Assembly: GCA_016178135.1 (NCBI GenBank)
Contig: JACOTW010000002.1
Location: 13,043-77,042 of the forward strand
DNA length: 64,000 nucleotides
Reading direction: 5' to 3'
From: Candidatus Saccharimonadota bacterium
Lineage (GTDB): Bacteria > Patescibacteriota > Saccharimonadia > Saccharimonadales > JACOTW01
The position numbers and the translations under genes are program-made. The notes under the pieces are model-generated. The model was given only the letters and a program-made list of their open reading frames with translations, did no database searches and had not been told where the DNA came from. Positions 1,391 through 63,879 of this stretch are shown here, piece by piece; within the stretch, counting starts at the first letter, position 1, and every line of letters begins with the position of its first letter.

Positions 1391-2037
1391 GTTTTAAGCA
1401 ACCTTTTTCTAAGATGATGATATTTAGGGTAAAGAAGTGAGCGTAAATTGGGACGATTAGTAACGAGCGTACCAGACATAAACAGATCAAGTAAGGTATC
1501 ATGGGTTGGTATTTGCTTGACCACGGTATAGGTTTTACCAAGCCCCTGATAGCCATGAGCATCGCTACTGGCCGCACCAATAATATGATTTATGCGTGCC
1601 CAAGTAATTGCCTGCGTGCCACGATTTTGTAAAAATGCTCGTCCGTTACAGGTTTCAATAATGTCGACTTGATCAAGTATTTTTTCAATAGCTACCGGCA
1701 TCAAACCTTTTCGGATAGTTTCGAAAGGATGGGGTATGTAGACAATTCCGCCTTGTTTTTTGATTTGTTTGACTGTTTCTAGGGGTGATAAATTTGGCTC
1801 GACTAAATTATCCAGATAGAGCCCAATTATTTCACCGTCGGTGGTCATGATTTCTTCACCAATAATTATACGATTACCTAATTTTTTGTGCAGCTCAACG
1901 GCAAAATCTATGCGGTTATGATCTGTTACGGCTATCACGTCCAGTAATCCTGTGGCTAGGGCGTGGGCGTATTGCTCGACTTTTATGCCACCATCAGGCG
2001 AGGCGGATGAATGCGTGTGTAGATCAATCTTGTACAT
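1387..2037 (-). CDS. PHP-domain metal-dependent phosphoesterase
   Basis: N-terminal IDLHTHSSASPDG, VTDHN and a C-terminal SDAH are PHP histidine motifs. It overlaps both neighbouring genes (4 nt and 14 nt). Confidence 0.75.
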   Translation of the reverse strand: MYKIDLHTHSSASPDGGIKVEQYAHALATGLLDVIAVTDHNRIDFAVELHKKLGNRIIIGEEIMTTDGEIIGLYLDNLVEPNLSPLETVKQIKKQGGIVYIPHPFETIRKGLMPVAIEKILDQVDIIETCNGRAFLQNRGTQAITWARINHIIGAASSDAHGYQGLGKTYTVVKQIPTHDTLLDLFMSGTLVTNRPNLRSLLYPKYHHLRKRLLKT

Positions 2038-2701
2038 TTTTTAGCTTCTTGGTTATATGCATGAATCGCTGCAAGACTGTTATCGATCCAAACACAACTA
2101 TTATGTACAGAATTGTTGGTAATTTACCAGATACCAAGCCAATTATGATCAGTACTATTCTGGTATCAAAACCAAGCAGACCGCTTCTAAAAGTCTTATT
2201 AACTTTGTGATCTTTACTGGATTCACCCAAAGCGATTTTGCGTGAATCCAGTTTATGGTGGCTAAAGTTAGCTAATACAGCCTCTCCCCAGGCATTCAAA
2301 TAACTGGTGAGTATAGAAATACCCAGAGCCACGATCAAAATAACTATAGTTGTTTTGCTAGCTCCGGAATCTATCAGAAATATAGCCATACCACAGTACA
2401 GCATAATTTCTTTTATGCGATCAGTTGCCGAATCCAAAAACATACCAAGAGCCGAAGTTTTATTTTGCGACCTAGCAAGTTCGCCATCCAACGTGTCAAA
2501 TAACCCAAAAATTGCTAAAAATAGCGCCGCCCACAACGGATGCCGCATGGCAATCAACCAAGCAATCGGAATATGCATCAATAATCCAAAAATCGTAACA
2601 GCATTTGGTGAAAGCCTGTTTTTGGTAATTCTACTAAGCACGACAGCAACACGTTGCATATATTGACGAACAAGATTCCTGATAATATCTAATAGCTTCA
2701 C
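2024..2701 (-). CDS. CDP-alcohol phosphatidyltransferase family protein
   Basis: Carries the D-G-x2-A-R...G...D...D motif (FDTLDGELARSQNKTSALGMFLDSATDR) in a polytopic membrane protein. Confidence 0.8.
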   Translation of the reverse strand: MKLLDIIRNLVRQYMQRVAVVLSRITKNRLSPNAVTIFGLLMHIPIAWLIAMRHPLWAALFLAIFGLFDTLDGELARSQNKTSALGMFLDSATDRIKEIMLYCGMAIFLIDSGASKTTIVILIVALGISILTSYLNAWGEAVLANFSHHKLDSRKIALGESSKDHKVNKTFRSGLLGFDTRIVLIIIGLVSGKLPTILYIIVVFGSITVLQRFMHITKKLKNVQD

Positions 2702-5522: not shown

Positions 5523-6461
5523 CTATAGCCCCCGCAAAACAAATTCGTGGGTTTTTGAAGCAATGATCTTTGAGCCAAAAACTGACTTTTCCGAGAGAGA
5601 CATATCCTTAGATACGTTGAACGAGGAAAGGCGGTTTTGGGCCAAAGAGGGTGACTCGAAAAGTCGGGAATTTGTTTTGCGGGGACTATATAACTGTAAC
5701 CCAAAAAACTCCTCAAGTGTTTCAAGGTTGTTTCTATATATTTCGCGTGATAGCTCTGTTCCGACATAACGGAGATGCCATGGTTCATAAGAATAACCAG
5801 TAATTTGCTGCTTATTTTTGGTATAACGGATGATAAAACCGTATTCGTAGGCATTGGCTGTCAGCCATTTGCCTTCCGGTAGGTCCCCAAAACATGATTC
5901 TAATTGACATTTCCTATCCGAACGACCAAGGTCAACCGCTAGACCAGTTTGATGTTCGCTGTGTCCAGGTTGCGCACTATAAGTATCGGCCTTAATCTGA
6001 CCATCTTGCTTAACATAGCCATTATATACTGAAGATTGAGTCGTGTAGCTACGATATCCGCTGACCAACATGAGCGAATATCCTGATTGTTTGGCTCCTA
6101 CAACAAGCTTGGAAAGTGCGTCGTTCATAACGTTGCTGATATGCATGTTTTCGCTGTTGGTAACTTCGCTTAGTAGTATGTTTGGAGTAACAAGATTGGT
6201 TGGTATGTAGGTTCTAGGTAGTGGACGTTGTTTGTTGACGACTACCCAAGGGCTTGCCGGATCAGTCGTAGAATATTTTGCTTTATCAATAACAGGAACG
6301 GCTGATTGAACTTCTGGGTTATTGGCTTTTACTATGGTTTGGGTAGGTGACTTAGGGGCATTGTCGTGTAGCACTAACCAGTAAAAGCTGATTCCAAATA
6401 ATAAGATTGCCAGAACGATAATGACTAGTTTTTTATTCAGGAAAAAATTTCTTCTAAGCAT
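5523..6461 (-). CDS. VanY/M15B D-alanyl-D-alanine carboxypeptidase with an element-derived C-terminal extension
   Basis: SGYRSY...SEHQTGLAVDL...EPWHLRYVG are the zinc-peptidase motifs, and an N-terminal TM anchor is present. The last ~55 codons (5526-5690) are read out of a type A palindromic element. Confidence 0.8.
   Translation of the reverse strand: MLRRNFFLNKKLVIIVLAILLFGISFYWLVLHDNAPKSPTQTIVKANNPEVQSAVPVIDKAKYSTTDPASPWVVVNKQRPLPRTYIPTNLVTPNILLSEVTNSENMHISNVMNDALSKLVVGAKQSGYSLMLVSGYRSYTTQSSVYNGYVKQDGQIKADTYSAQPGHSEHQTGLAVDLGRSDRKCQLESCFGDLPEGKWLTANAYEYGFIIRYTKNKQQITGYSYEPWHLRYVGTELSREIYRNNLETLEEFFGLQLYSPRKTNSRLFESPSLAQNRLSSFNVSKDMSLSEKSVFGSKIIASKTHEFVLRGL
5524..5690. repeat. Type A palindromic element, copy 1 (termini TATAGCCCCCGCAAAACAAATTC / GAATTTGTTTTGCGGGGACTATA)
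   Basis: Terminal inverted repeats of about 23 bp. A second full copy lies at 44905-45071 and a solo right end at 63238-63262. Confidence 0.85.
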
Positions 6462-6495: not shown

Positions 6496-6668
6496 CGATT
6501 GATATATAGGACTTACGTACTTTCTCACCACACCAGACTTAACCTGTGTGGTTACAAACGGCCCATGTTCTCTCGGTGTAGCTATGGCTACCCCTCCAGA
6601 ACCTGAACCGTTTTCGCTCACCCAGCTACACTCTGGCATTGGTAAGAAAGTGCGTAAGTCCTATATAC
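6496..6668. repeat. Long hairpin element, variant with GGACTTACG termini
   Basis: TATATAGGACTTACGTACTTTCTCACC at 6496 pairs with GGTAAGAAAGTGCGTAAGTCCTATATA ending at 6667. It abuts the next type B copy. Confidence 0.6.
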
Positions 6669-6821
6669 TGAACCGATCGCAAAATCCCTCATCCCCATAA
6701 TGAATCAGCTCGAGCAAAAGCGGTTTTCTATGAAGAAGATGTATCCAGTAGAGAGGAAAAACTGTTTGTGGCCACGGTTAGTCGGTCTGGGGATGAGGGA
6801 TTTTGCGATCGGTCCAGTATA
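6666..6821 (+). repeat. Type B palindromic element, copy 1
   Basis: Runs TACTGAACCGATCGCAAAATCC...GGATTTTGCGATCGGTCCAGTAT. The internal sequence is shared with the copies at 52132, 53235 and 56671. It ends 10 nt before the orn ATG. Confidence 0.85.
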
Positions 6822-29381: not shown

Positions 29382-29410
29382 TTGACAAGTGTTGTAAAAT
29401 TGGCTATAAT
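29382..29410 (+). promoter_or_regulatory. Consensus sigma-70-type promoter upstream of ftsK
   Basis: TTGACA at 29382-29387, a 17-nt spacer, then TATAAT at 29405-29410. Confidence 0.55.
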
Positions 29411-29490
29411 AGGGCTTACGTACTTTTTCGTGGCAATAGACTGGACCTGCCGCACCCGTTATCTACGAAAAAATGTGTAAATCCTATATA
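29409..29490 (+). repeat. Short hairpin element with GGCTTACG-type termini in the ftsK 5' leader
   Basis: AGGGCTTACGTACTTTTTCGT pairs with ACGAAAAAATGTGTAAATCCT, and most mismatches are G-U compatible on the + strand. The termini resemble the type B ends. Confidence 0.45.
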
Positions 29491-33544: not shown

Positions 33545-34108
33545 ATGGCATTTGGACCAACTGATCTTAAAAAAGGGCAGGTGTTTCAGTTGGATAATAT
33601 TCCGTATCGAGTGGTTGAGTACGGTCAAAAGGTGATGGGTCGTGGGGGCTCAATTGTAAACGTCAAAATAAAGAGTCTACTGAATGGTAAAGTTCTGGAT
33701 AAAACTTTCAAGGGAAATGAATCCATTGAACCCGCTGATGTAACTAATAAAAATGTGCAATATCTCTACAGCGATGCCAATTCATTTTTCTTTATGGATG
33801 AACAAACTTACGAGCAATTTGAACTACCAGTTACTGATATGTTAGATCAAACAGGTTACCTGAAAGAAGGTGATCGTGTTTTGGTTCAGCTGTTTAATGA
33901 TAGGGTTATAAATATTGAATTACCCAAAAATGTTCCCCTCAAGGTAACTTATGCTGAAACCGCGGTCAAAGGCGACACAAGCTCAGCAATAACAAAAGAC
34001 GCGACCGTAGAGACGGGCATTATTGTCAAAGTACCTGCGTTTGTAAAAGTTGGCGATATTATTTCGGTTGATACCGCGACTGGGACGTACCGTGAGCGTG
34101 TCAAATAA
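33545..34108 (+). CDS. efp: elongation factor P
   Basis: 187 aa. DLKKGQVFQLDNIPYRVVEY...GRGGSIVNVKIKSLLNGK is present, with an AAGGAG Shine-Dalgarno upstream. Confidence 0.9.
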   Translation: MAFGPTDLKKGQVFQLDNIPYRVVEYGQKVMGRGGSIVNVKIKSLLNGKVLDKTFKGNESIEPADVTNKNVQYLYSDANSFFFMDEQTYEQFELPVTDMLDQTGYLKEGDRVLVQLFNDRVINIELPKNVPLKVTYAETAVKGDTSSAITKDATVETGIIVKVPAFVKVGDIISVDTATGTYRERVK

Positions 34109-34988
34109 GTATCGCCTAGACAAAGAATTACTGCGTCGAGGATTAGTTGTATCTAGGTCGCAAGCTGAGGATATTATTCGCAGGGGTTTTGTAAGCGTAG
34201 CTGGTATAAGCGTTACCAAACCCGGCTTGTTGGTATCAGAAAATGTACAAATCGTCATAAAATCACGTGTTAGTTTTGTATCACGAGCGGGCGAAAAACT
34301 TCATTCAGTCTTAGATATCCTTCAACTGGATTTGTCGGACAAAGTTGTGTTGGATGTCGGTTCGTCAACTGGCGGTTTTACCGAACTGGCTTTACGCATG
34401 GGGGCAAAAAAAGTTATTGCGGTAGATGTTGGAACCAATCAAATGCATCCCAGCTTGCGTAATGATCCCCGAATTGAACTTCACGAAAAAACCGACATCC
34501 GCAATTATGTGAAAGGATCGACCACTCACATAGACGTTGTTCTGATTGATGTTAGTTTTATATCATTGCGTCAAATATTACCGTACTGCGCTACACTGAT
34601 TGATCGCAATTCGGTGATCGTGGCTATGGCAAAACCGCAGTTTGAGGCTAGACTGGACTTACCCAAAGCTCCCCCATCCCCAGACCAACTAATCTCAAGC
34701 GGTAGCGGTCTGCCTTCTATCAATGTAGCTAAGGCTACCTCTCCTTCAGTCAAACCACTATCAACTCGAGCTGATTTGCCCTGGGAACGGGCGATTTTGC
34801 GTAAGTCCAGTAGAGACATAGTTAAACACAAGGGAGTAATAAAGAACGATAAAATGCGTAGGGAGATACTAAAACACCTTGAAGATAGCATACAAAATTT
34901 GTTCATTATTATCGACAAGGCTGATTCTGGAGTTGCCGGCGCTCGCGGCAATAGGGAGCGCTTTTATTTGTTACGAAAAGCCGGGTAG
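34098..34988 (+). CDS. tlyA: TlyA-like S4-domain rRNA 2'-O-methyltransferase carrying an in-frame type B element
   Basis: The S4 domain reads RLDKELLRRGLVVSRSQAEDIIRRGFVSV. The FtsJ-like AdoMet motif is VLDVGSSTGGFTE, followed by KPQFEA. The GTG start overlaps the efp stop. About 54 codons (34652-34812) are element-derived. Confidence 0.8.
   Translation: MSNKYRLDKELLRRGLVVSRSQAEDIIRRGFVSVAGISVTKPGLLVSENVQIVIKSRVSFVSRAGEKLHSVLDILQLDLSDKVVLDVGSSTGGFTELALRMGAKKVIAVDVGTNQMHPSLRNDPRIELHEKTDIRNYVKGSTTHIDVVLIDVSFISLRQILPYCATLIDRNSVIVAMAKPQFEARLDLPKAPPSPDQLISSGSGLPSINVAKATSPSVKPLSTRADLPWERAILRKSSRDIVKHKGVIKNDKMRREILKHLEDSIQNLFIIIDKADSGVAGARGNRERFYLLRKAG
34652..34812 (-). repeat. Type B palindromic element, copy 3 (inside tlyA, in frame)
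   Basis: Runs ACTGGACTTACCCAAAGCTCCCCCATCCCCAGACC...GGGCGATTTTGCGTAAGTCCAGTA. It translates as LDLPKAPPSPDQ...WERAILRKSS without a stop. Confidence 0.9.
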
Positions 34989-38203: not shown

Positions 38204-38366
38204 TACTGGACTTACGCAAAACTCCCCCATCCCCAGACCAACTAATCCCAAGCGGTAGCGGTCTGTCTTCTCTCGATGTAGCTAAGGCTACCTCTCCTTC
38301 AGTCAAACCACTCCCAACTCGAGCTGATTTAGCCTGGGAACGGGCAATTTTGCGACAGGTCCAGTA
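38204..38366 (-). repeat. Type B palindromic element, copy 4
   Basis: Runs TACTGGACTTACGCAAAACTCCCCCATCCCCAGACC...GGGCAATTTTGCGACAGGTCCAGTA. Confidence 0.9.
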
Positions 38367-38414: not shown

Positions 38415-38423
38415 TTGGCTATT

Positions 38424-39446
38424 ATGGATCATCCAGATTTATCCCCAGATTACATTACCGACAGACTTCATGAAACTGGAGTTGTAGATGTAGATGTTAC
38501 ACCGTTCATATCAGAGCAGCATGACGAGCCTAGTAACTTGCCAAACCCAGAGATTATTGATACCGAAACACCAGCAACGCCAAAGAATGACGGCATGTCC
38601 CGCCGTGGTTTTTTAAGGCTTGCTGGTATTGCCGCTACGACATTGTTGGCGGGTAGTTCGGGTAATAATATTTATAGCGGTACTAACGAACACCCCAGCC
38701 TGATCAGTGAACAACATCACAAACTACCTAACACCGAAGTCATAAAATCAGTCGCGGAAACAATGCCAAAACCCCCCGAATTTTCCGAACTTAGTCTTAG
38801 AATAAATAGTCCGGAAACTCCAGACGGGGCATTTATGGGAGCAATGACAGTCAGATATGCCGATAACCCAGATCGTAGCCTGCAATCTGAAGAAGGCTTA
38901 ATTGATAAATACTGGCAATCAAAAGGTTTACCACGACCAGCCGTCAATAACCCATCAGTGCACCGTTTAAGGGTAGGAGGATCTATCACCAGCGAAAATG
39001 TCAAGGCGTTTGACCCGCTATTGGATGAAGCCGCGGTTGTCCACAAAGGTACGGATAGCGGGTTGATTTTGATAGCCCAACACAATATCACACAAGTTAA
39101 AGGGCCTGTTGAGCTCGATGGTGCTATTTACGACCACTTGCAGATGGGTATTAATGAATACGTTATGCCTGGCGATACATTAGAAATAGTTTTGTCGAAT
39201 CAACAACAGCCAGGTTTTTTGGATGTGTTTAGGTTTGTTGCCACTGGCTCCAGGGTTGTAGCTTATCCTGAAGATTTAGAAACAGTGTATGAATACAATC
39301 CAGAAGAGGGCAAAGAACAAGCAGGGGATTTAGCTGTTCTGAAAACCTATATTTGTTGGCCGCCAGGGCAGAAAAGGTACAGATTGGTTGTTGAATGGGA
39401 GCCTCAAAATACCGCGATTGTGCACGGAACAGTTAATCCGGTATAA
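38424..39446 (+). CDS. secreted sortase-like protein (tentative) with a twin-arginine-like signal
   Basis: An internal MSRRGFLRLAGIAATTLLAGS gives an alternative start at 38595. LIAQHN...GDTLEIVL...LKTYICWPPGQKRYRLVVEW resembles the sortase H...GD...(L)xTC...R pattern. Confidence 0.4.
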   Translation: MDHPDLSPDYITDRLHETGVVDVDVTPFISEQHDEPSNLPNPEIIDTETPATPKNDGMSRRGFLRLAGIAATTLLAGSSGNNIYSGTNEHPSLISEQHHKLPNTEVIKSVAETMPKPPEFSELSLRINSPETPDGAFMGAMTVRYADNPDRSLQSEEGLIDKYWQSKGLPRPAVNNPSVHRLRVGGSITSENVKAFDPLLDEAAVVHKGTDSGLILIAQHNITQVKGPVELDGAIYDHLQMGINEYVMPGDTLEIVLSNQQQPGFLDVFRFVATGSRVVAYPEDLETVYEYNPEEGKEQAGDLAVLKTYICWPPGQKRYRLVVEWEPQNTAIVHGTVNPV

Positions 39447-39501: not shown

Positions 39502-39709
39502 ATATCATAGTCGACAGTTATTTGAGGAGGAGCTGGCAGTTTTTGCCGCGCCGGAACTTGTGCTGTTGACGTACATTGACATGTCAGACTGGAATATATA
39601 GCGATTTTGGGGTCGCCTAGTGTGTTTGAAACTTGTTTGAAGTATCGAACATAACAGGCGGCCCTAAATGGGGAAGCTGGCGGTAACGCCACAAGACAGA
39701 AAGGTAACA

Positions 39710-40291
39710 ATGAAAAAAATTATTGTTATCGCAATCTTGTTGATGGCATTACTTGCCATCAACTCAACTCTTCCCTCCGCTTCTGCGGAAGGAAGCCAAA
39801 GCAGCGTTACCCTTTCGGGGGCAACGCTTTGTGGTGAGGCCGTGACGATGTCCGTCATGGCTTCTGGATTGGAGCCCAGTGTGGGCTTCAGTTTGGAAGA
39901 CCTCGACGACCAATGGGCGTCTTGGGGTATAGGAGGAGTCGGTTTTGACACCGACTCAGAAGGGGGTTTCACCGGTTCGGTGAAGCTTGTAGACGTTGGC
40001 GGGATCGTCCCAACACCAACACGGTTGGTGTTGTCAGTTTTTACCGACGATCCAGATGCTAACGATCCGTGGGTGTCGGAAGACATTACAGTTAGCGTTG
40101 CTAACTGTAATGCGCCACCGACCACACAGCCACCAACAACGGAGCCACCGACCACACAGCCACCAACAACGGAGCCACCGACCACACAGCCACCAACAAC
40201 GGAGCCACCGACCACACAGCCACCAACAACGGAGCCACCGACCATCAAGAAATCATCGAAGCCAAAAACGGCCTTGATGACGACCTTGTGA
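39710..40291 (+). CDS. secreted repeat protein (signal peptide plus PTTQPPTTE repeats)
   Basis: The signal peptide is MKKIIVIAILLMALLAINSTLPSASAEG. C-terminal (PPTTQPPTTE)x4 repeats and a basic tail follow. The gene is visibly more GC-rich than its surroundings. Confidence 0.65.
   Translation: MKKIIVIAILLMALLAINSTLPSASAEGSQSSVTLSGATLCGEAVTMSVMASGLEPSVGFSLEDLDDQWASWGIGGVGFDTDSEGGFTGSVKLVDVGGIVPTPTRLVLSVFTDDPDANDPWVSEDITVSVANCNAPPTTQPPTTEPPTTQPPTTEPPTTQPPTTEPPTTQPPTTEPPTIKKSSKPKTALMTTL
40114..40244 (+). repeat. Perfect 30-bp tandem repeat, about 4.4 copies
   Basis: The unit GCCACCGACCACACAGCCACCAACAACGGA is repeated head-to-tail without a mismatch inside the CDS. Confidence 0.95.
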
Positions 40292-43816: not shown

Positions 43817-44857
43817 ATGAGTATATTGAGTGGGGTATCTGAATTTTTCGGTCTAGATATGGGGACTACAGCTATTCGCTTGGTAGAACTTAGGGGTAGC
43901 GGGCCAGTTAAAGCTCTAGCTAAATACGCCTATGTGCCCGTTGACAGCAAGCTTGCTTTGAGCGATTCCAAGGCCGATCAATTACGCCTAGTGAAAATTA
44001 TTAATGATCTTATCACCGAAGCACGGGTATTGACCAAAAATGTGGCCGTTGGTATTCCGTCGCAACGAGTGTTTACTACGGTTGTAGATATTGAGCGCTT
44101 GTCGCCTGCCGAGCTGGCTAAAAGTCTGAAATACCAAGCCGACGCCTTGATTCCGACGCCATTGTCAGAATCTAAGCTTGACTGGTCACTACTAGGGGAT
44201 TCACCTAAGGATAAAACAAAGATGGAAGTCCTGCTCTCTAGTGTTACTAATGAATTTGTAGAAAATCGTCTGGATTTGCTGGAATCGATTGGTCTCAATG
44301 TTATTGCGTTCGAGCCGGATAATTTGGCACTTAGCCGCGCATTGATCGCTCCAGACGCAGTTATGCCACAAATGGTGCTTGATATTGGTAGCAAGAGCAC
44401 CGATCTGGTTATTGTTATGAATGGAGCGCCAAGATTGACTAGATCTATTCCGACAGGGTCAGAAGCTATCATTAAAGCCGCAGTACAGAACCTGAATATT
44501 GACGAAAAACAGGCCGGAGAATTTGTTTTTAAATTCGGTCTTTCTAAGGACAAATTAGAAGGGCAAATTGCCCAGGCTATCTTAAGTACGGTTGATTTGC
44601 TAGTGTTAGAAATCGATAAATCCATAAAGTTCTTCCAGGCGCGCTATCCGGAAACCAAGGTTGATCGCATTATCGTAACTGGTGGTGCTTCGGCTTTACC
44701 GGAGTTTCCATTGTATATTGCTAATAAGTTTGGCATAAGCGTTGAGATTGGTAATGCTTGGCGTAACATATCTTTTGCTGCTGATCGTCAGAACGAACTA
44801 CTGGCCGTTTCCAGCCATTTTGGTGTGGCGGCGGGGTTAGCGGAGAGGCAAGAATGA
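43817..44857 (+). CDS. pilM: type IV pilus assembly protein PilM (actin-like ATPase fold)
   Basis: The N-terminus is FGLDMGTTAIRLVEL. 346 aa, followed by pilN and pilO. Confidence 0.85.
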   Translation: MSILSGVSEFFGLDMGTTAIRLVELRGSGPVKALAKYAYVPVDSKLALSDSKADQLRLVKIINDLITEARVLTKNVAVGIPSQRVFTTVVDIERLSPAELAKSLKYQADALIPTPLSESKLDWSLLGDSPKDKTKMEVLLSSVTNEFVENRLDLLESIGLNVIAFEPDNLALSRALIAPDAVMPQMVLDIGSKSTDLVIVMNGAPRLTRSIPTGSEAIIKAAVQNLNIDEKQAGEFVFKFGLSKDKLEGQIAQAILSTVDLLVLEIDKSIKFFQARYPETKVDRIIVTGGASALPEFPLYIANKFGISVEIGNAWRNISFAADRQNELLAVSSHFGVAAGLAERQE

Positions 44858-44904
44858 AAAAACGCATAACGACAAAATCTAAATACGCCCAAATGACCGC
44901 TATG

Positions 44905-45071
44905 TATAGCCCCCGCAAAACAAATTCGGGGGTTTTGGAGCCGATGATCTTCGAGTCAAAAATTGGCTTTTCCGAGGGAAGCATATCATTAGATAAGGTG
45001 AGTGAGGAAAGACAGCTTTTGACCGGAGAGGGCGGTTCAAAAAGCCGTGAATTTGTTTTGCGGGGGCTATA
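44905..45071. repeat. Type A palindromic element, copy 2
   Basis: Runs TATAGCCCCCGCAAAACAAATTCGGG...CGTGAATTTGTTTTGCGGGGGCTATA and aligns along its full length with 5524-5690. Confidence 0.9.
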
Positions 45072-45085
45072 TTATGCTGGTACTG

Positions 45086-45247
45086 TACTGGACTTACGCA
45101 AAGCTCCCCCATCCCCAGACCAATTCATCTTGGCTGGTAGCGGTCTGTCTTCTCTCGATGTAGCTAAGGCTACCTCTCCTTCAGATAAAACAGTTTTCGC
45201 TCGAGATAATTCACTCTGGGAACGGACGATTTTGCATAAGTCCAGTG
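45086..45247 (-). repeat. Type B palindromic element, copy 5 (mosaic of subfamilies)
   Basis: Runs TACTGGACTTACGCAAAGCTCCCCCATCCCCAGACC...GGACGATTTTGCATAAGTCCAGTG. It lies 14 bp from the type A copy. Confidence 0.9.
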
Positions 45248-45272
45248 TACTACTGTCATCAGAGGTTATGTC

Positions 45273-45986
45273 ATGATTCAGTTTAACCTCTTACCTGACG
45301 TAAAGCTTGATTATATTAAAGCTAAGCGAATCAAACGCTTTGTAATATTGATTTCTATTACTATTGCCGGAGCACTTCTGGCAATTATGGTATTGCTGTT
45401 TTTGGCTGTCAACGTCTTTCAGAAAGGTCACCTGGATGACTTGAACGTTGATATCAAAAAGTATAGTACAGAACTAAAGAGTACGCAGGATCTAAGCAAA
45501 ATATTAACTATTCAAAATCAACTTAATAAATTGAATAAACACGATAATACGCCTGGACTACATGATAAAAAACCGGTTGCCTCCCGCTTATTTCCGTATT
45601 TGTCGCAGATGCTTCCTGATAAGCTTAGCATTGCAAACCTTGATGTTGACTTTGAAGTACAAACCATGTCTTTCACCGGTGGTGCTGACAGCTTGAGTAC
45701 TATTAATAAATTTGTTGATACCCTTAAGTTTACAACCTACAAAATTGACAAGGAGCCCAATGAGATAAAAGCTTTCTCAAGCGTAGTGTTAACTAATTTT
45801 GGGCGTGATGACGCTGCTGCCACCTATCAGATAGATCTTAAATTCGACCTTCTTATCTTTGATTCATCGAAAGAAATAAGTATCCTGGTACCTAAAATCA
45901 TCACTACTCGTTCTGAAACCGAAAAGCCAGTTGATCTATTTCAGTCGACAGGTAGCGAACAAATTAATAAACAGGTTAACGAGTAA
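45273..45986 (+). CDS. pilN: type IV pilus assembly protein PilN-like
   Basis: IQFNLLPDVK at the N-terminus and a single TM segment are present. Its position after pilM supports the call. Confidence 0.75.
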   Translation: MIQFNLLPDVKLDYIKAKRIKRFVILISITIAGALLAIMVLLFLAVNVFQKGHLDDLNVDIKKYSTELKSTQDLSKILTIQNQLNKLNKHDNTPGLHDKKPVASRLFPYLSQMLPDKLSIANLDVDFEVQTMSFTGGADSLSTINKFVDTLKFTTYKIDKEPNEIKAFSSVVLTNFGRDDAAATYQIDLKFDLLIFDSSKEISILVPKIITTRSETEKPVDLFQSTGSEQINKQVNE

Positions 45987-49832: not shown

Positions 49833-49842
49833 AAAATGAGTA

Positions 49843-50040
49843 TACTGGACTTACGCAAAATCACCCGTTCCCAGGCTAAACTGGACTTACGCAAAATCGT
49901 CCGTTCCCAGAGTGAATTATTTCGAGCGAAAACTGTTTTATCTGAAGGAGAGGTAGCCTTAGCTACATCGAAAGAAGGCAGACCGCTACCAGCCGAGATG
50001 AATTGGTCTTGGGATGGGGGAGCTTTGCGTAAGTCCAGTA
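49843..50040 (+). repeat. Type B palindromic element, copy 6 (duplicated left terminus, mosaic)
   Basis: TACTGGACTTACGCAAAATCACCCGTTCCCAGGCTAAAC is followed at once by a second TGGACTTACGCAAAATCGTCCGTTCCCAG..., and the copy ends ...GAGCTTTGCGTAAGTCCAGTA. Confidence 0.9.
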
Positions 50041-51977: not shown

Positions 51978-52010
51978 ATAGCGACTCCGAAAGGAGTCGC
52001 TATTTATTAT
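51978..52010 (+). terminator. Rho-independent terminator after pilA
   Basis: ATAGCGACTCC-GAAA-GGAGTCGCTAT is followed by TTATTATT. Confidence 0.8.
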
Positions 52011-52052
52011 TGCCTAAACCGTACATATAAATATATGTTAATATAACTTCTA

Positions 52053-53042
52053 ATGATTAACGGTATAATTATAGTTTTTGTTGGATTGGTTTTGGGTAGT
52101 TTTGTCAACGCGTTGGTTTGGCGGCTACATCTACTGGCCTTACGCAAAGCTCCCTCATCCCCAGACCGACTAACCTCGGCTACAAACAGTTTTTCCTCTC
52201 TCGATGTACCTTCAGGTACCTCTCCTTCGGATAAAACTGTTTTCGCTCGAGCTGATTCGCTCTGGGAACGAGGGATTTTGCGTAAATCCAGCCTACAATC
52301 CACCAAACATCCAAAAAAACCTGATAATAAAAAATATTCGATTGTTAGTGGGCGTAGCATGTGTCCAGATTGCCGACACCAGTTGGCCTGGTATGATTTG
52401 ATCCCAGTCATTAGTTGGCTAGGTCTTCGGGGGCGCTGTCGCTATTGCCATAGACCAATAAGTTGGCAGTATCCATTAGTGGAAATACTAACTGCTGTAA
52501 CTTTTATCACATCGTATGTTTATTGGCCTTACTCTTGGTCTGCTATTGGTATTACGTTATTTATTGTTTGGATCGTGTCGCTTATCAGTTTCATGGCGCT
52601 TGCCGTCTATGATTTGCGTTGGTTTATTTTGCCGGATAAAATTGTATTTCCTTTAGTCGGACTTGCGGCCATCCAGATCATCATGCGGACTGTATTATAT
52701 GGCGAAATAAGTCCTATACTAGGTGGTCTAATAGGTGTTGTTACGCTTGCTGGTTTATTTTATGCACTGTTCCAATTCTCAAAAGGACAGTGGATTGGTG
52801 GAGGAGATGTAAAGCTGGCAGTAGCTCTAGGTATGTTGGCAGGCGGAGCGGCCGAGAGCGTGTTACTGCTATTTTTAGCATCGTTAATTGGTACTTTGGT
52901 GAGTTTACCACTTCTGTTAAGTAAGAAACTAAAAAAGAATAGCCGGATTCCATTCGGCCCCTTACTTCTTATGGCTACCTTTATCGTCTATATTTTTGGG
53001 TCTGACATCATTAATTGGCTTAAGCTGTATTATTTTTATTAG
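52053..53042 (+). CDS. pilD: prepilin peptidase (A24 family) carrying an in-frame type B element
   Basis: LGSFVNALVWRL...CPDCRHQLAWYDLIPVISWL...CRYC forms a zinc-finger-like region. GGGDVKL is an active-site Asp motif. About 53 codons (52132-52291) are element-derived. Confidence 0.85.
   Translation: MINGIIIVFVGLVLGSFVNALVWRLHLLALRKAPSSPDRLTSATNSFSSLDVPSGTSPSDKTVFARADSLWERGILRKSSLQSTKHPKKPDNKKYSIVSGRSMCPDCRHQLAWYDLIPVISWLGLRGRCRYCHRPISWQYPLVEILTAVTFITSYVYWPYSWSAIGITLFIVWIVSLISFMALAVYDLRWFILPDKIVFPLVGLAAIQIIMRTVLYGEISPILGGLIGVVTLAGLFYALFQFSKGQWIGGGDVKLAVALGMLAGGAAESVLLLFLASLIGTLVSLPLLLSKKLKKNSRIPFGPLLLMATFIVYIFGSDIINWLKLYYFY
52132..52291 (-). repeat. Type B palindromic element, copy 7 (inside pilD, in frame)
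   Basis: Runs TACTGGCCTTACGCAAAGCTCCCTCATCCCCAGACC...GAGGGATTTTGCGTAAATCCAG. It translates as LLALRKAPSSPDRL...WERGILRKSS. Confidence 0.9.
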
Positions 53043-53047
53043 ATAGA

Positions 53048-53140
53048 ATTTTCGCACTTTTTCATCACCCCAGATCATACTTGAACGGCCATAAACATTA
53101 CTCAAAATTTGGTCATTTTGTTTTGGGATGGCTATACATA
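53048..53140 (+). repeat. Family C repeat, immediately 3' of the pilD stop
   Basis: Runs TTTTCGCACTTTTTCATCACCCCAGATCATACTTGAACGGCCATAAAC...TTTGGTCATTTTGTTTTGGGATGGCTATACA. Related copies lie at 8165, 60471 and 61651. Confidence 0.7.
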
Positions 53141-53179
53141 GTCCTTATGTTATAATTCGAGTGGACATGGATATCTATT

Positions 53180-54289
53180 ATGGACAGTCATAAACAGCCA
53201 CAAGCATCCCATAGATCTTATAGTCAGGGCAGTTTACTCGACTCACCCAAAATCGCCCGTTCCCGGAGTGAATTATCTCGAGCGAAAACTGTTTTATCTG
53301 AAAGAGGGGTACCTGAAGGTACATCGAGAGAGGAAAAACTGTTTGTAGCCGAGGTTAGTCGATCTGGCGATGGAGGAGTTTTGGGTAAGTCGAGTATAGG
53401 CTATACGATTGTTGAAGTTATGATTTTTCTGGCTATTTCCAGTGCCATACTTGTTAGTGCTTTATTGTTGGTAGGTGGGCAACAACAAAAAACGCAGTTC
53501 ACCCAATCTTTAAGAGATATTGATTCTCATATTCGTGACGTAATGAATGACGTGTCAGCTGGTATTTATAGTAATACTGGCAATTTTCAGTGCCTGGCAG
53601 ATAATGCCGGCAGTGCTCCAGTTATATCGGCTGGTGCCGATAAACAAGGAGCAAATGTCAGCTGTATTTACATCGGTAAGGTTTTACAGTTTGGACCGGC
53701 TTCCAGTCCAGAGGATTTCAATGTGTTTAGTGTTGCCGGCCGTCAATTTCGAGGCGCGCCAATTGCCTCAAAGTTAGTTTCAGATATAACAGAGTCTAAG
53801 CCAGTGCCAATAGCGCCGAATATCGCTCATCTTGCCATGATTGGTCCAGGATTAGATGCTACAGATTACAATAAACTCGATTACGGACTTACTATAAAAG
53901 ACAATAGTGATGGGGCTCATCCGGGCTTAAGTTATGATAATGGTAGTGGCCCGCAGGCCATAGGGGCATTTGGCTTTTTTTCTAACTTTGTTACTTATCC
54001 TGACGGTAGTGCAAGTCCTGAATCAGGTCGACAGTTTACCGATATTTGGGTGATCCCTGCCAGTGCTTATGGCGATGATGCGCGAAATGTTGCCGACGAC
54101 ATCATTGATATTGGTGGTTTAAGCAGTTCAGCTGCTACCTCGTTTAAAAATCCGGCTAAAGGTATTACTTTATGTTTTTTGAGTAGCGGAACAGATCAAT
54201 ATGGCAAAATAACTATCGGTGATAATAATCAAAGACTTGCTACTACGTTGTCAGTAGGTTACAGAGGAGATGGGAGTATTTGTACATGA
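53180..54289 (+). CDS. pilin-like protein (prepilin-type N-terminal domain) with an element-derived leader
   Basis: The mature N-terminus would be G|YTIVEVMIFLAISSAILV. The 72 codons before it are mostly type B element. An alternative TTG start at 53381 is preceded by GGAGGA and would give the leader MGKSSIG. Confidence 0.7.
   Translation: MDSHKQPQASHRSYSQGSLLDSPKIARSRSELSRAKTVLSERGVPEGTSREEKLFVAEVSRSGDGGVLGKSSIGYTIVEVMIFLAISSAILVSALLLVGGQQQKTQFTQSLRDIDSHIRDVMNDVSAGIYSNTGNFQCLADNAGSAPVISAGADKQGANVSCIYIGKVLQFGPASSPEDFNVFSVAGRQFRGAPIASKLVSDITESKPVPIAPNIAHLAMIGPGLDATDYNKLDYGLTIKDNSDGAHPGLSYDNGSGPQAIGAFGFFSNFVTYPDGSASPESGRQFTDIWVIPASAYGDDARNVADDIIDIGGLSSSAATSFKNPAKGITLCFLSSGTDQYGKITIGDNNQRLATTLSVGYRGDGSICT
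53235..53396 (+). repeat. Type B palindromic element, copy 8 (in the 5' part of the pilin-like gene)
   Basis: Runs TACTCGACTCACCCAAAATCGCCCGTTCCCGGAGTG...GATGGAGGAGTTTTGGGTAAGTCGAGTA. Confidence 0.9.
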
Positions 54290-55463: not shown

Positions 55464-56666
55464 ATGAAAAAAATCATTACACTGGACTTACGCAAAATCG
55501 CCCGTTCCCAGGCTAAATCAGCTCGAGTTGGGAGTGGTTTAGCTGAAGGAGAGGTAGCCATAGCTACATCGAGAGAAGACAGACTGCTACCAGCCGAGAT
55601 GAATTGGTCTGGGAATGGGGGAGCTTTGCGTAAGTCCAGTACACTCAAAAAAAACCAGTCTGGTCTAGTTTCTATAATAGTAACCTTGATAATCATGTTG
55701 GTTATGAGCTTAATTGTTATTGGCTTTGCTAAGCTGGTACGGCGTGATCAACGCCAAACGCTTGATAAGCAACTTAATGCCCAGGCGTTTTATGCTGCCG
55801 AAGCAGGCATTAATGACGCTAGGCAAGATATTAGGGTCGCCCTTAATGCTGGAACACCAATTCCAGAGAAATCTACCTGTGCCCCAAACAGTAGTCCGCC
55901 TTTTGATAAGTCAAATATAGTTGATAGCGCACGTAACATTTCTTATACCTGTCTTCTTGTCGATCCGACGCCTGAAAGTCTGGAATACAGCAATATTGAC
56001 ACCAGCACCTCGACAGTTGTGCCGGTAACACTTAAAGATACGACCGACCACATTACGTCAATAACTGTAAGCTGGCAAGCTAAAGATGGAAATACGAATT
56101 TTGCTTGTCCGGGTAGCGGTGTTTATCCGGCTCTGCCCGCGTCTTCTCTATGGGGATGTGGTATAGGTATTATGCGACTAGATCTTGTCCCGACTGATGG
56201 ACATAAGACAAGGGCTGATTATACGAATACGACTTTCAGTAGATTCCTGTATCCTTTACCGGGGTCGCCAGGAGTTAATTCTGTTGGATATGTAGGTAGT
56301 CAAGGTGATTTTGTGCCAGTACAGTGCAGTGCTACGGCTGTACCAAAATACTGTACGTTAACCATAACGGGTTTAAGCACCACCAATTTATATATCCGTC
56401 TGAAGTCAATATATATTGCTTCAAACGCTACGATTACTTGTACGACTGCCTCGGGTGCGGCATGTGAAATGGGCGGGACGCAGATATTGGTTGATTCTAC
56501 AGGGAAAGCCAATGACGTTTTACGTCGTATACAGGTGAGGGTTCCTGATGTAATATCAGGTATATTGCCGGAAGGAGCGCTTGATACCAGTAGCAATATC
56601 TGTAAACGTTACGTTATTGTTAATAACTCTTCTTTGAGCGATCCTGATTCATGCGGTACCAATTAA
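55464..56666 (+). CDS. PilX-like pilus-associated protein with a type B element in frame after codon 6
   Basis: MKKIIT + [LDLRK...LRKSS] + TLKKNQSGLVSIIVTLIIMLVMSLIVIGF. A basic leader followed by QSG and a hydrophobic helix is the PilX-type pseudopilin pattern. Confidence 0.65.
   Translation: MKKIITLDLRKIARSQAKSARVGSGLAEGEVAIATSREDRLLPAEMNWSGNGGALRKSSTLKKNQSGLVSIIVTLIIMLVMSLIVIGFAKLVRRDQRQTLDKQLNAQAFYAAEAGINDARQDIRVALNAGTPIPEKSTCAPNSSPPFDKSNIVDSARNISYTCLLVDPTPESLEYSNIDTSTSTVVPVTLKDTTDHITSITVSWQAKDGNTNFACPGSGVYPALPASSLWGCGIGIMRLDLVPTDGHKTRADYTNTTFSRFLYPLPGSPGVNSVGYVGSQGDFVPVQCSATAVPKYCTLTITGLSTTNLYIRLKSIYIASNATITCTTASGAACEMGGTQILVDSTGKANDVLRRIQVRVPDVISGILPEGALDTSSNICKRYVIVNNSSLSDPDSCGTN
55481..55641 (+). 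repeat. Type B palindromic element, copy 9 (in the PilX-like gene, in frame)
   Basis: Runs ACTGGACTTACGCAAAATCGCCCGTTCCCAGGCTAAATCAGCTCGAG...GGGGGAGCTTTGCGTAAGTCCAGTA. Confidence 0.9.
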
Positions 56667-56670
56667 TCTT

Positions 56671-56831
56671 TACTGGACTTACGCAAAATCCCTTGTTCCC
56701 AGGGTGAATCAGCTCGAGCGAAAACAGTTTTGTCTGAAGGAGAGGTACCCAGGAGGTACATCGAGAGAAGAAAAACTGTTTGTAGCCGAGGTTAGTCGGT
56801 CTGGGAACGAGGGATTTTGCGTAAGTCCAGT
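56671..56831 (+). repeat. Type B palindromic element, copy 10
   Basis: Runs TACTGGACTTACGCAAAATCCCTTGTTCCCAGGGTGAATCAGCTCGAGCG...GAGGGATTTTGCGTAAGTCCAGT. Confidence 0.9.
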
Positions 56832-56854: not shown

Positions 56855-59038
56855 CTAGGACTTACGTGAATGAAATTTCTCATGTATAGCTTTTAAGTGT
56901 GGATCGGTAACATGAGTGTATATTTGGGTTGTAGATATATTACTATGACCAAGCATTGCCTGAACTGACCTCAAATCTGCACCGTTCATTAATAAATCTG
57001 TTGCAAATGAATTATGTGAGACGAAGCCATCTGCAATTAAATTTTCGGTTTCTTCTACTGTGAAGTCGTATACAGTTATATCTGTTTTGATTCTATCGGT
57101 CTTATGAACTTTGAGCCATTTTATCTGGTTATTACTACTCGCTAGTCTACGGAGTAGGTTCATTCTGGGGTCTAATATACCAGCACGTTTGAATCGCACA
57201 TAAAAACGCATTGCTGTTTCTTTGGTCGGGAGGACTTGGCCGCTTAAGTATCTAGAGTGGTCCTTTAGTGTTCTTTGATCTTTACGGCGAGTATACAGAC
57301 TTTTACCGGATTCTTTGACTAGTTTGTTTAGGTTAACTAGCATTTCAGTAATTGGTAGTTTTTCACCTACAAAATCCGGACTGATGTTTATCTTTTTGAG
57401 CGTAGGAATTTTGGTGACAAATTTTTGCTGATCTGGCTGGTATAGTATCTGAAGATTGTAGATTGTGAAGGGTTGTTTGACCGTATCTGCAGATTTATGG
57501 GGTAAACGAACCATACGGTTACGTGTATAGAAATGGGCATCAATTCCAAGTCTAAGTAATAACATCTGGATGTCTTTTATAAATTCTTTGTTGGCGCTGA
57601 AGAATTTGGCGTCGCCCTCGTTGCCGTCTGCGTCGTAGAGACCGGCCAAGAAATGGGCAACGGCACTTTCTGATGACCTGAATAATTTGTCTGGTACACG
57701 TAGGCCATGGGTTGTGGTTGCGAGCCCTAGTTTCTTTAGTAGTTTTACAAGAGGCATATGGTAGCAAGTGACATTAAAACTGTTGGAATTAGATGCTGGC
57801 TTGATTTCGACTTTTTTGTTGAATAATTTTTCTATTAAGTCAACGTAGAGGCTCAAGAAAACTTTGTTTTTGTCGTGTAGTATTACGCCGTGCCGACGTT
57901 CGCTGACAGTTCCGTCACCACATATGTAGCCAATAAGTCGCCACATGTCGTTCGACAAATACTGTTTGCTTTGTTGGGATATTTTCTTGACCCCCATAAC
58001 GTAATCACCAGATTTTAGGTCACTTGCTTGGATTTGAGCAAATCCGTCTTTGTCTAGAGTAAATAAACGGTGTTCTGGGGTACACACAAGCTCGTAACCA
58101 CCGGCAGTTAGCTGAATCATTTCTGTAGATTTGTGGGTGCTTGAATGACTAATGGCTTGCGATGTCTGTGTACCTTTATTGAGATGGAGCGACTTTACGC
58201 TGTGTTTGGTTGAATTATAAAGATATTCTGCACTTACTATTCTACGGGGAAGGCTGATTCTAGTATTTGGGTGTAGACAATGGCGGAGCGTGTGGGGGGA
58301 TACGTGTTTGGTGATGCCAGCAAGGACTGCGTAGCGGGCGACTAATCTTTGTACGCTGCGGGCGGTAAGGCGGTAATAATTGCCGCTGACAGTTGATTTT
58401 TTGCTGCCGCTGTATCTGATAAATAGGGGTAGGGAATTGTCTTGGCGTTTGTCCATATATTGTGTAATCCACCAAGCCGATGTATCGCTAATGAATATTG
58501 GGCGGTCTTTTTGGCCTTTGCCCCGAACCATAAACTCGCGTCGTTTGAGATTGATATGATCCTTGTCTAGCCCTACAAGCTCCGAGACGCGCAGTCCCGA
58601 AGAAAATAATAGTTCTAAAATAGCCCGATCTCTTAGTCCTGGTAAGTTATCAATATTTGGTTGAGAAAATAATCGTTCAAGTTCCTCGGGTGCTAAAAAG
58701 GTAACTTGTTTTCTGACAGTTCGAGCCAGTTCAATCTTGTCAGCAGAGATAGCTGGGATATTGCGTTTGGCGCAATACTTCAAGAAGCCTCTTAGCGCTA
58801 TGAGGTGATAATTCTGGGTATTTTTTTGTAATTCATCACTTGTATTTGTGCCCAGTCGATTCAGCCACAATCTCCATTTCCGTATCATTTCCGTATCAAT
58901 ACCAGATATTTTAATATCACCGGTGAAATCTATTAAGCGCGTTAGGTAGTGGTCATAGTTACGGATAGTTTTTTGTGATCTATTTTGTTCGATTTCTAGG
59001 TATTCCAGGAAATCAGTTTTGGCTTTAGAAAATAACAT
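56855..59038 (-). CDS. XerC/XerD-family tyrosine recombinase interrupted by an intein
   Basis: The exteins total 304 aa. The N-terminal SAM-like domain reads [33 protein letters not shown]-type box I ([19 protein letters not shown]) and HVSPHTLRH are present. After the 423-aa insert come [34 protein letters not shown], which include the catalytic Tyr. Confidence 0.88.
57011..58279 (-). mobile_element. Class 1 intein with a LAGLIDADG homing endonuclease (423 aa) inside the recombinase
   Basis: It begins with Cys (CLHPNTRI, block A). Block B is TPEH, and the LAGLIDADG motifs are [11 protein letters not shown] and [11 protein letters not shown]. Blocks F/G are [21 protein letters not shown], followed by the +1 Ser. 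Codon checks: TGT at 58279-58277, AAT at 57013-57011, TCA at 57010-57008. Confidence 0.88.
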
Positions 59039-60460: not shown

Positions 60461-60470
60461 ACTAATCAGG

Positions 60471-60565
60471 AGTTTCGCACTTTGCCATTTCCCCAGCTCA
60501 TACCTGAATGGCTACAAACTCCCACTCCTCCATCAATATAACTACTTTGGGATGGATTTGACGAA
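60471..60565 (+). repeat. Family C repeat, 3' of the PH-domain gene stop
   Basis: Runs GTTTCGCACTTTGCCATTTCCCCAGCTCATACCTGAATGGCTACAAACT...TTTGGGATGG. Confidence 0.7.
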
Positions 60566-61724: not shown

Positions 61725-61886
61725 AAACTCGACTTACGCAAAATCGTCCATTCTCAGACCAACTAACCTCGGCTGATAGCGGTCTGCCTTCTTTCGATGC
61801 AGCTAAGGCTACCTCTCCTTCAGTCAAACCACTATAAACTCGAGCTGATTTGCCCTGGGAACGGGCGATTTTGCATAAGTCCAGTG
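61725..61886 (-). repeat. Type B palindromic element, copy 12
   Basis: Runs AAACTCGACTTACGCAAAATCGTCCATTCTCAGACC...GGGCGATTTTGCATAAGTCCAGTG. Confidence 0.9.
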
Positions 61887-63342: not shown

Positions 63343-63506
63343 TACTGGACCTGTCGCAAAATCGCCCGTTCCCAGGCTAAATCAGCTCGAGTTGGGAGTG
63401 GTTTGGCTGAAGGAGAGGTAGCCGTAGCTACATCGAGAGAAGACAGACCGCTACCAGCCGAGATGAATTGGTCTGGGGATGGGGGAGCTTTGCGACAGGT
63501 CCAGTA
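63343..63506 (+). repeat. Type B palindromic element, copy 13
   Basis: Runs TACTGGACCTGTCGCAAAATCGCCCGTTCCCAGGCTAAATCAGCTCGAG...GGGGGAGCTTTGCGACAGGTCCAGTA. Confidence 0.9.
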
Positions 63507-63522
63507 TAATTGGAGTGATCTT

Positions 63523-63879
63523 ATGCCTATTGCTAAAAACTATTTTCACGATCGTCTAGTATTACTATTGCTTAGTGTCAATATATTCCTAACGCTTCTA
63601 GGTGCACTTTTGATTGTTCTTAGATTTAGTGGTAATAATAGTGAAAGCCACATTGTACAATATCGCTCCCACCTTGGACTTGATGCATTTACAAAGGGTG
63701 GATCTGCTCCAATTTTTAGTTTTATATTGTTTTCTGTCTTGATCATGGTATTTCATACTGTGCTTGGCATGCGGATTTATCATCTAAGACGGCAGTTTTC
63801 TGTTACCGTGCTTGGAACTGGCACGCTTTTGTTGATTATCGCAATCATAGTTAGTAATGCTCTCTTGGTATATCGTTAA
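63523..63879 (+). CDS. hypothetical polytopic membrane protein
   Basis: The ATG at 63523 follows a GGAG sequence just after the element. Three predicted TM helices are present. The track ORF start at 63403 lies inside the element. Confidence 0.5.
   Translation: MPIAKNYFHDRLVLLLLSVNIFLTLLGALLIVLRFSGNNSESHIVQYRSHLGLDAFTKGGSAPIFSFILFSVLIMVFHTVLGMRIYHLRRQFSVTVLGTGTLLLIIAIIVSNALLVYR

Follow-up and report, generated by a model that had tools for sequence, protein, structure and literature searches.

The pilD gene of a Candidatus Saccharimonadota bacterium (52053..53042, + strand), which encodes an A24-family prepilin peptidase, carries a copy of a short palindromic repeat within its reading frame. 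The gene lies in a stretch of 64,000 nucleotides, here called the window, that corresponds to positions 13,043 to 77,042 of contig JACOTW010000002.1 (assembly GCA_016178135.1). We consider it likely, with a probability of about 0.8, that the insert is a non-autonomous MITE (miniature inverted-repeat transposable element) at codon 26/27 of pilD, translated as part of the protein and carried as a tolerated passenger.

The core of the element measures 158 nt (52134..52291, +), begins with CTGG and ends with CCAG, and forms an imperfect palindrome in the sense orientation. It is bounded by a left terminal inverted repeat (52134..52164, +; CTGGCCTTACGCAAAGCTCCCTCATCCCCAG) and a right one (52261..52291, +; ending in CTGGGAACGAGGGATTTTGCGTAAATCCAG), and is flanked by a target-site duplication reading TCTA on the left (52130..52133, +) and CCTA on the right (52292..52295, +; TCTA in strain GCA_040960765.1). 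A first-pass annotation, made from the sequence alone, had placed an in-frame insertion of a repeat element at 52132-52291; these coordinates are correct to within 2 nt, the peptide it wrote agrees with ours, and family copies 73-91% identical to the insert are found in the window at 34653, 38206, 45088, 49881, 53237, 55482, 56673, 61728 and 63345.

According to the mechanism we propose, a MITE with IS701-type terminal inverted repeats of ~30 nt would have entered pilD at codon 26/27 and duplicated 4 bp; the resulting 162 nt (158 + 4) would have preserved the downstream frame, and reading of the element in the single stop-free frame of its sense strand would have kept the open reading frame (ORF) open. 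The 54 added residues, being hydrophilic, Ser-rich and net-positive, would sit in the length-variable cytoplasmic linker between the first transmembrane segment (TM1) and the CxxC motifs, and would on that account be tolerated. The peptide itself we infer to be neutral.

The insert and its host protein

The core together with one copy of the 4-bp duplication adds 162 nt, that is 54 codons (LLALRK...ILRKSS), to pilD, with a junction reading ...VWR/LHLLALR and with APSSPDR, LTSATNSFSSLDVPSGTSPSDK and ADSLWER as segments derived from the insert. Translation of the ORF is free of stops and gives a protein of 329 aa including the insert, which is 100% identical to an NCBI entry named prepilin peptidase [Candidatus Saccharibacteria bacterium]. 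Pfam recognized A24_N_bact (PF06750, 9.2e-30) and Peptidase_A24 (PF01478, 3.3e-12, residues 175-284); the A24_N_bact profile has 84 positions and was stretched across residues 10-156, which points to extra sequence within the domain.

Comparison with homologues located this extra sequence in a linker. Between R24 and G100 the window PilD has 75 aa, while the same linker spans 9-62 aa, with a mode of 20-22, in 119 homologues; subtraction of the 54-aa insert leaves 21 aa, which is the homologue norm. In silico excision of the core and one duplication yielded a PilD of 275 aa with a slightly better A24_N_bact score, and the closest homologue (P0002, from locus L001 of run SRR33639316; 76% identity) also has 275 aa and lacks the insert. 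The insert peptide was absent from all 119 homologues in the multiple alignment, contrary to what would be seen if it were native conserved sequence, a case that the first-pass annotation had named as one that would refute it. That annotation had put the insert between TM1 and the Cys-rich motif, in the loop that carries the motif: the position between TM1 and the first CxxC is right, although the residues affected belong to the variable linker preceding the Cys motif and not to the motif itself.

Two other PilD homologues have unrelated expansions in the same linker, so that the site can be regarded as generally permissive. The PilD of Saccharibacteria GCA_038253735.1 (locus L108, 10080-10200) has a 59-aa linker produced by a tandem duplication (TTCGACAAGCTCAGGGCAGGCAGTCCA twice) with a SGQAVHPFDKLRAGS-type peptide, and this is an independent expansion at the same permissive site. 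The 62-aa linker of homologue P0041 was considered as an old copy of the same element and rejected, as neither BLASTP nor nhmmer found any similarity; the linker insert of homologue P0013, considered as a family copy, proved to be a tandem duplication of unrelated sequence.

The peptidase motifs 3' of the insert are intact, as the first-pass annotation had stated. The CxxC...CxxC of the A24 N-terminal domain (C104, C107, C129 and C132; 52362..52448, +), the first Asp (D187, in a YDLRW context; 52611..52613, +) and the second Asp (D252, in GGGDVK; 52806..52808, +) are, together with G249 and G251, invariant columns of the 120-sequence alignment, and G250 is nearly so. D187 and D252 we take to be the catalytic residues, from established knowledge of A24 peptidases. 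The gene is part of a complete type IV pilus cluster, in the order pilM, pilB, pilT, pilC, pilin, pilD and several pilin-like genes, one of them with a PilX_N domain (Pfam); no second pilD or other A24 peptidase was found within the 64-kb window, which answers, for the window, the question of a second intact pilD raised by the first-pass annotation. In Saccharibacteria, type IV pili play a central part in living as episymbionts.

Structure prediction with AlphaFold2, using the 120 sequences, returned a helical bundle with a mean predicted local distance difference test (pLDDT) value of 86.8 and a predicted template modelling score of 0.81. Confidence is high in the body of PilD (pLDDT 84-98), falls to 53-56 over residues 41-90 and is ~70 on either side of these; the core is thus confident and the insert is not, in answer to the structural check that the first-pass annotation had suggested. 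Foldseek comparison of this model against the PDB gave no significant match. The insert peptide is Ser-rich, has 8 K+R against 5 D+E, a grand average of hydropathicity of -0.40 and no hydrophobic 19-mers. The added 54 residues are probably disordered; by the positive-inside rule and the A24 topology, the insert should remain cytoplasmic and the topology of PilD unchanged. PilD would most likely still work as a prepilin peptidase, with an additional loop that is floppy.

On the opposite strand, an ORF of 134 aa (52007-52411, -) overlaps the 5' part of pilD and is open only via the antisense frame of the element; it is almost certainly not a gene.

The repeat family, its frames and its origin

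Repeat finding, BLASTN and nhmmer identified in the 64 kb ten full-length family members, one cut by the window end, two internally deleted, one terminal fragment and one mini-copy of 35 nt. Alignment of the copies revealed imperfect terminal inverted repeats of ~30 nt (CTGGACTTACGCAAA...TTTGCGTAAGTCCAG) that bound the 158-nt core, and duplications of 4 bp whose two sides agree perfectly in six copies or more (TAGA, TGTA, TACA, TTTA and, in two of them, TATA). The family therefore has what is expected of a MITE: terminal inverted repeats, a duplication of fixed length, small size, several copies and no transposase gene. Searching the window for the terminal-repeat pair pattern gave 8 occurrences (both strands counted; five elements) against 0.00 expected in shuffled sequence, which excludes chance. 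The pilus cluster, which runs over ~20 kb from position 45 kb up to the end of the window, holds approximately nine copies or remnants.

All family copies are predicted to form strong hairpins, from -46 to -78 kcal/mol; that of the pilD copy reaches -69.5 kcal/mol with short flanks (z = -9.9) and -68.4 kcal/mol for the core alone, its longest perfect helix being of 10 bp. Rfam at its gathering threshold reported only tRNAs in the window, a permissive Rfam search of 52000-53500 gave a single 25-bit match to a plant miRNA hairpin, which we take as chance, and a promoter and terminator scan found nothing in or beside the element.

Nearly all full-length copies have one stop-free frame on each strand, with 1-6 stops in the other frames; the sense frame reads (I/V)LDLRKAPPSPDQ...WERAILRKSS and the antisense frame LLDLRKIARSQ...GDGGALRKSS. 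A related family occurs in a bacterium of CPR2, a lineage that belongs, like Saccharibacteria, to the Candidate Phyla Radiation (CPR); its interior differs and its length exceeds that of the window family by 3 nt, yet it shares the frame-preserving length and the open frames. Among the matches listed, 17 of 20 Saccharibacteria and CPR2 elements have a frame-preserving length and LDLRK frames that are mostly open, a count that amounts to about two independent observations at the family level since copies within a family are not independent. By contrast, the elements listed from outside the CPR (Cyanobacteria and other phyla) fall into length classes of 22/21/8 and 11/11/14 with no bias, and their LDLRK frames are not preferentially open.

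The terminal repeats extend well beyond this host. A scan of 185,579 species genomes detected at least 105 stretches with the terminal-repeat pair in many phyla; among the matches listed, the pair GGACTTACSCAAA/TTTGCRTAAGTCC (13 nt), 115-145 nt apart, occurs in MITE-sized elements with unrelated interiors from Nostocales, Hymenobacter, Undibacterium, Comamonadaceae, Chloroflexota, Halothiobacillaceae, Desantisbacteria and Acidobacteriota, whereas 2.9 million viral contigs gave no match to the pair. An nhmmer profile of the element itself matched CPR loci only. At the protein level, an exhaustive HMMER search with the peptide in 1.84 billion representative proteins gave 80 matches, many of them spurious ORFs of 50-110 aa, and a word-indexed peptide search found short spurious ORFs only. 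The full 54-aa peptide was also found embedded in NUDIX (mid-domain), AAA_18 kinase-like, TatC (as a C-terminal tail), FemAB, HAD/methyltransferase and PIG-L proteins. At least 20 further copies across the genome are annotated as tiny hypothetical proteins (HY003_ locus tags, many of 50-93 aa); many of these are almost certainly artefacts of the element, as is the antisense ORF at 52007-52411.

Regarding the origin of the family, the terminal repeat has a 12-nt core, GGACTTACGCAA, that matches without difference the repeat published for ISPlag1, a Planktothrix element of the IS701 group known also from 197-bp remnants (PMC2464740); the ISPlag1 repeat reads CAGGACTTACGCAAGC (PMC2464740) and that of the window family CTGGACTTACGCAAAG. 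Moreover, a table of Thermus insertion sequences contains an IS701-family entry with 4-bp direct repeats (PMC6352166). On these sequence grounds, an IS701-family transposase presumably mobilized the element. Within the fetched loci, terminal-repeat pairs separated by 0.7-3 kb enclosed ordinary genes and no transposases, and the long ORFs that follow solo terminal repeats included no transposase.

Several other copies lie inside genes. In a TlyA-like rRNA methyltransferase (ORF 34050..34988), the copy at 34653..34810 (+) is inserted in frame in the FtsJ domain with TAGA on both sides; the FtsJ match ended at position 127 of 181 before in silico excision and was contiguous over positions 1-179 after it. 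A mini-element of 35 nt (2217..2251, +), made of the two terminal repeats only and with a TTTA duplication, is located in a CDP-alcohol phosphatidyltransferase gene (2024..2701, -), which it lengthens in frame by 39 nt, equal to 13 codons (LDSRKIALGESSK), and its excision lengthens the Pfam domain match. Two more are read antisense in the leaders of pilin-like genes next to pilD. The copy at 53237..53394 (-) makes up most of the ~73-aa leader of gene 53180..54289 (+) and stops 2 codons before G/YTIVEV, where the orthologue has MKGGSQAKITPTAG/FTIVEV; that at 55482..55639 (-), with TACA on both sides, is in frame in the ~67-aa leader of a PilX-like prepilin (gene 55464-56666, +), which reads MKKII, 54 aa, then TLKKNQSG/LVSIIV, as compared with MRKILPLNQLNKNQDG/F in the orthologue. 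Leaders of the orthologues measure 14-32 aa and 16 aa, respectively. Both copies stand shortly before the cleavage site (G/Y and G/L, respectively), and the element peptide in such leaders would be lost on prepilin maturation.

Strain comparison and competing explanations

The window is identical to contig JACPYE010000003.1 of GCA_016196105.1 (Candidatus Saccharibacteria bacterium). A second strain, GCA_040960765.1, was assembled independently and is separated from the window by 257 differences over 21 kb; its PilD of 329 aa is nevertheless identical, with the same insert junctions, and short-read contigs from two further runs extend from pilD 35 nt into the element and end there. Presence of the same insert in an independent assembly shows that it is not an assembly artefact. 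In the second strain the pilD duplication is perfect (TCTA/TCTA) and the right terminal repeat is nearer to the consensus.

The five differences between the strains in pilD (52229, 52232, 52271, 52286 and 52292) are all within the insert, and all are synonymous transitions at third positions; the probability that five of five would fall there by chance is (1/3)^5, or ~0.004. This all-synonymous change is one hint of constraint on the peptide. Elements are approximately threefold enriched in differences between the strains, and the 45088 copy contains a patch of 20 differences that is consistent with gene conversion.

The pilD of locus L001 lacks the element but has, at the orthologous spot, TTGCGTAATTCCAGC, which agrees at 14 of 15 nt with the right end of the window pilD copy; no comparable match to TTGCGTAATTCCAGC was found in the non-element part of the window. 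This site is either a remnant or a second insertion, and not a clean empty site. It is possible that the linker was struck independently in both lineages; it is also possible that one old insertion was mostly deleted in L001 and has been kept young-looking in the window by gene conversion. The pilD copy is 86-91% identical to its nearest sister copies, and upstream of the next pilin gene, too, an element end is found in L001 at the corresponding position. Between the two pilD genes, identity is 53% at third codon positions against 76% of amino acids, which indicates long-term purifying selection on pilD.

Some observations weigh against the interpretation of the insert as a translated and tolerated MITE. 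An autonomous insertion sequence with these terminal repeats was not found in the window or in ~110 fetched loci, and the IS701 link, based on the 12-nt match and the duplication length, should be seen as a supported lead. Both translation of the insert and activity of PilD are what we infer from the sequence, and the search for a second pilD covered the 64-kb window only. A hairpin of -68 kcal/mol within the mRNA could lower expression. All five synonymous changes fall within a 64-nt stretch and, given that the elements are prone to conversion, may represent one conversion event and not five independent tests. Finally, no presence/absence polymorphism of any copy was observed between the two strains (40.1-61.3 kb).

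The limited reach of the second-pilD search, together with the location of the insert within a Pfam domain, would be compatible with an inactive or dispensable pilD, a decaying gene that is open by luck while another peptidase does the work. We regard this as highly improbable, since the ORF is intact in two strains with synonymous change only, every invariant Cys, Asp and Gly is retained, the gene belongs to a complete pilM-pilB-pilT-pilC-pilin-pilD-minor pilin cluster with no other A24 peptidase in the window, and the amino acid identity to the L001 PilD exceeds that at third positions (76% and 53%). Breakage of short-read contigs inside the elements could in turn suggest that the insert is an assembly artefact, or one might suppose that it is lost from the transcript or the protein in the way of an intron or an intein; such explanations are scarcely credible in view of the same junctions in the two assemblies and of the contigs from two further runs that enter the element from pilD, and because neither an Rfam intron nor, in PilD, a Pfam intein domain was detected, while the same analysis did recognize the intein of a neighbouring recombinase.

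A functional role of the peptide, or an effect of the hairpin at the RNA level, is possible but unsupported. Transcribed MITEs are known to alter mRNA stability, and the hairpin could act, in addition to being translated, as a 5' structure in the pilD mRNA that serves as target for a double-strand-specific RNase or as a ribosome brake tuning expression, a kind of effect described in other bacteria for Correia and ERIC elements. The predicted energy and its z value, together with the strong hairpins of all family members, argue for this; however, the element has no promoter or terminator signal and matches no Rfam family, and the 10-bp limit on perfect helices in the pilD copy counts against it as well, so that we think it unlikely. 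Recruitment of the element peptide in the pilus system, for instance as a docking or regulatory loop of PilD that recognizes element segments in the leaders of its substrates, would fit with the five synonymous differences out of five, with a sense reading in PilD and antisense readings in the leaders of two adjoining pilin-like genes, with the cytoplasmic location of all three segments according to established A24 and prepilin topology, and with the density of copies in the pilus cluster. Nevertheless, unrelated enzymes contain the same peptide, as does intergenic DNA where it has been annotated as tiny hypothetical proteins; it is dispensed with by the closest PilD and by 118 other homologues, the AlphaFold2 model has low confidence over the insert, the leader copy at 55482 differs between strains at codon positions 1 and 2, and leaders and variable linkers are precisely the places where insertions harm least; recruitment is accordingly very unlikely. 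The first-pass annotation had left neutral accommodation and functional use side by side, and the evidence favours accommodation of a translated passenger.

Related systems, further copies and neighbouring sequences

The nearest parallel is with the Rickettsia palindromic elements (RPEs; Ogata et al. 2000, 2002), described in PMC10969869 and PMC3184786 as palindromic repeats located in frame within housekeeping genes. Both kinds of element are palindromic, of ~100-150 bp and provided with an open frame, both occur many times in frame in unrelated housekeeping genes of a small, reduced genome, and in both the inserted peptides appear compatible with the fold of the host protein. The window family differs from RPEs, of which we treat it, by its features, as an analogue and not as a member, in that its host belongs to another phylum; in its MITE hallmarks, namely ~30-nt terminal inverted repeats and 4-bp duplications; and in being stop-free on both strands, with a footprint of 3n nucleotides that includes the duplication. 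The best reading is that of an RPE-like phenomenon in the CPR, which works like an RPE but is a classical MITE in a different phylum.

Other systems are less similar. MITEs with the same ends in Cyanobacteria and other phyla, among which there may be Nezha-type elements, and the ISPlag1 remnants (PMC2464740), share the terminal motif GGACTTACGCAA(A) and a size of 140-170 nt, while their internal sequence is unrelated, their duplications at the same offset are not identical and, among the matches listed, they have neither a mod-3 length bias nor a preferentially open frame. ERIC, BOX and Anabaena MITEs (Delihas 2007; Croucher 2011; Wolk 2010; PMC3184786, PMC10969869) are small repeats occasionally fused in frame to ORFs, internally or at the 5' or 3' side; fusions there are sporadic, whereas the length and the both-strand frames of the window family make in-frame survival regular, and several essential genes within one 64-kb window carry its copies. 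Correia elements, which are Neisseria MITEs, resemble it in size (~100-160 bp), terminal repeats, short duplications, transcript hairpins and density near pilus genes; they nonetheless duplicate TA and act mainly intergenically through promoters, integration host factor sites and RNase III processing, whereas the promoter and terminator scan found no such signals in the window family. The literature searched contained no description of MITEs or palindromic elements in Saccharibacteria or the CPR, which is weak evidence of their absence.

More generally, we tentatively suggest that CPR bacteria (Saccharibacteria, CPR2) may contain MITE families whose evolution has made them neutral to coding sequence, through a 3n footprint, a stop-free frame on each strand and a hydrophilic disordered peptide; such families could colonize the genes of reduced genomes in a manner convergent with RPEs, and their presence in a pilus enzyme and in two substrate leaders might possibly reflect co-option. 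If this were true, coding-neutral MITEs would regularly supply essential proteins with new loops, tails and longer leaders. In the pilus system studied here, selfish DNA, most likely translated, is present in the one peptidase that the system depends on and in two of its putative substrates. Palindromic elements in frame have been seen as a peculiarity of Rickettsia, a view that a MITE family in two CPR lineages changes; the finding of 3n MITEs open on both strands in these lineages, and of same-ended MITEs elsewhere without these properties, suggests that in reduced, gene-dense genomes there is repeated selection of mobile elements capable of residing within genes. On the practical side, the element yields dozens of spurious hypothetical proteins and inflated gene models, and it also fragments assemblies of short reads, with consequences for how good CPR genome bins are. 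Coding-compatible MITE families, which CPR genomes appear to contain, are the point worth following up.

The remaining copies lie between genes or at the ends of ORFs. The intergenic copy at 56673..56830 (-), with TTTA on both sides, is the nearest to the pilD copy (90.6% identity), and another occupies the pilT-pilC gap (49881..50038, -) with a 39-nt terminal fragment alongside (49842-49880). Further intergenic copies are those at 61728..61884 (+), of 157 nt and with stops in the sense frame, and at 6669..6818 (-), of 150 nt and with TATA on both sides. The copy at 38206..38363 (+) lies upstream of ORF 38415..39446, and one of 160 nt (63345..63504, -; TATA on both sides) is found at the 5' end of ORF 63403..63879. 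That at 45088..45245 (+) is located at the 3' end of the small ORF 44854..45276 and is abutted by one unit of a two-copy 168-nt repeat (5524-5691 and 44905-45072, 82% identity) that gives weak nhmmer matches to the element profile; together they account for most of this ORF, and a true gene is improbable there.

A second, weakly related repeat family with ends ATAGGACTTACGTACTTT... was detected at 6505-6661, 29409-29449, 53043-53083 and 60466-60506, and is probably what the first-pass annotation called type A. A degenerate copy of this family begins at the base after the pilD stop codon, and pilD is thereby bracketed by three element copies.

A XerC/D-like tyrosine recombinase of 727 aa (56855-59038, -) contains an intein that carries a LAGLIDADG homing endonuclease; the Pfam matches are to Phage_integrase, split into two stretches, to Intein_splicing and to LAGLIDADG_3, and orthologues at two other Saccharibacteria loci have 303 and 373 aa and no intein domain match. 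Within ORF 39668..40291, a 15-nt tandem repeat (40114-40263) gives rise to a Pro/Thr-rich protein (PPTTQPPTTE...), and no other kilobase varies as much between the two strains as the one containing it (50 differences per kb).

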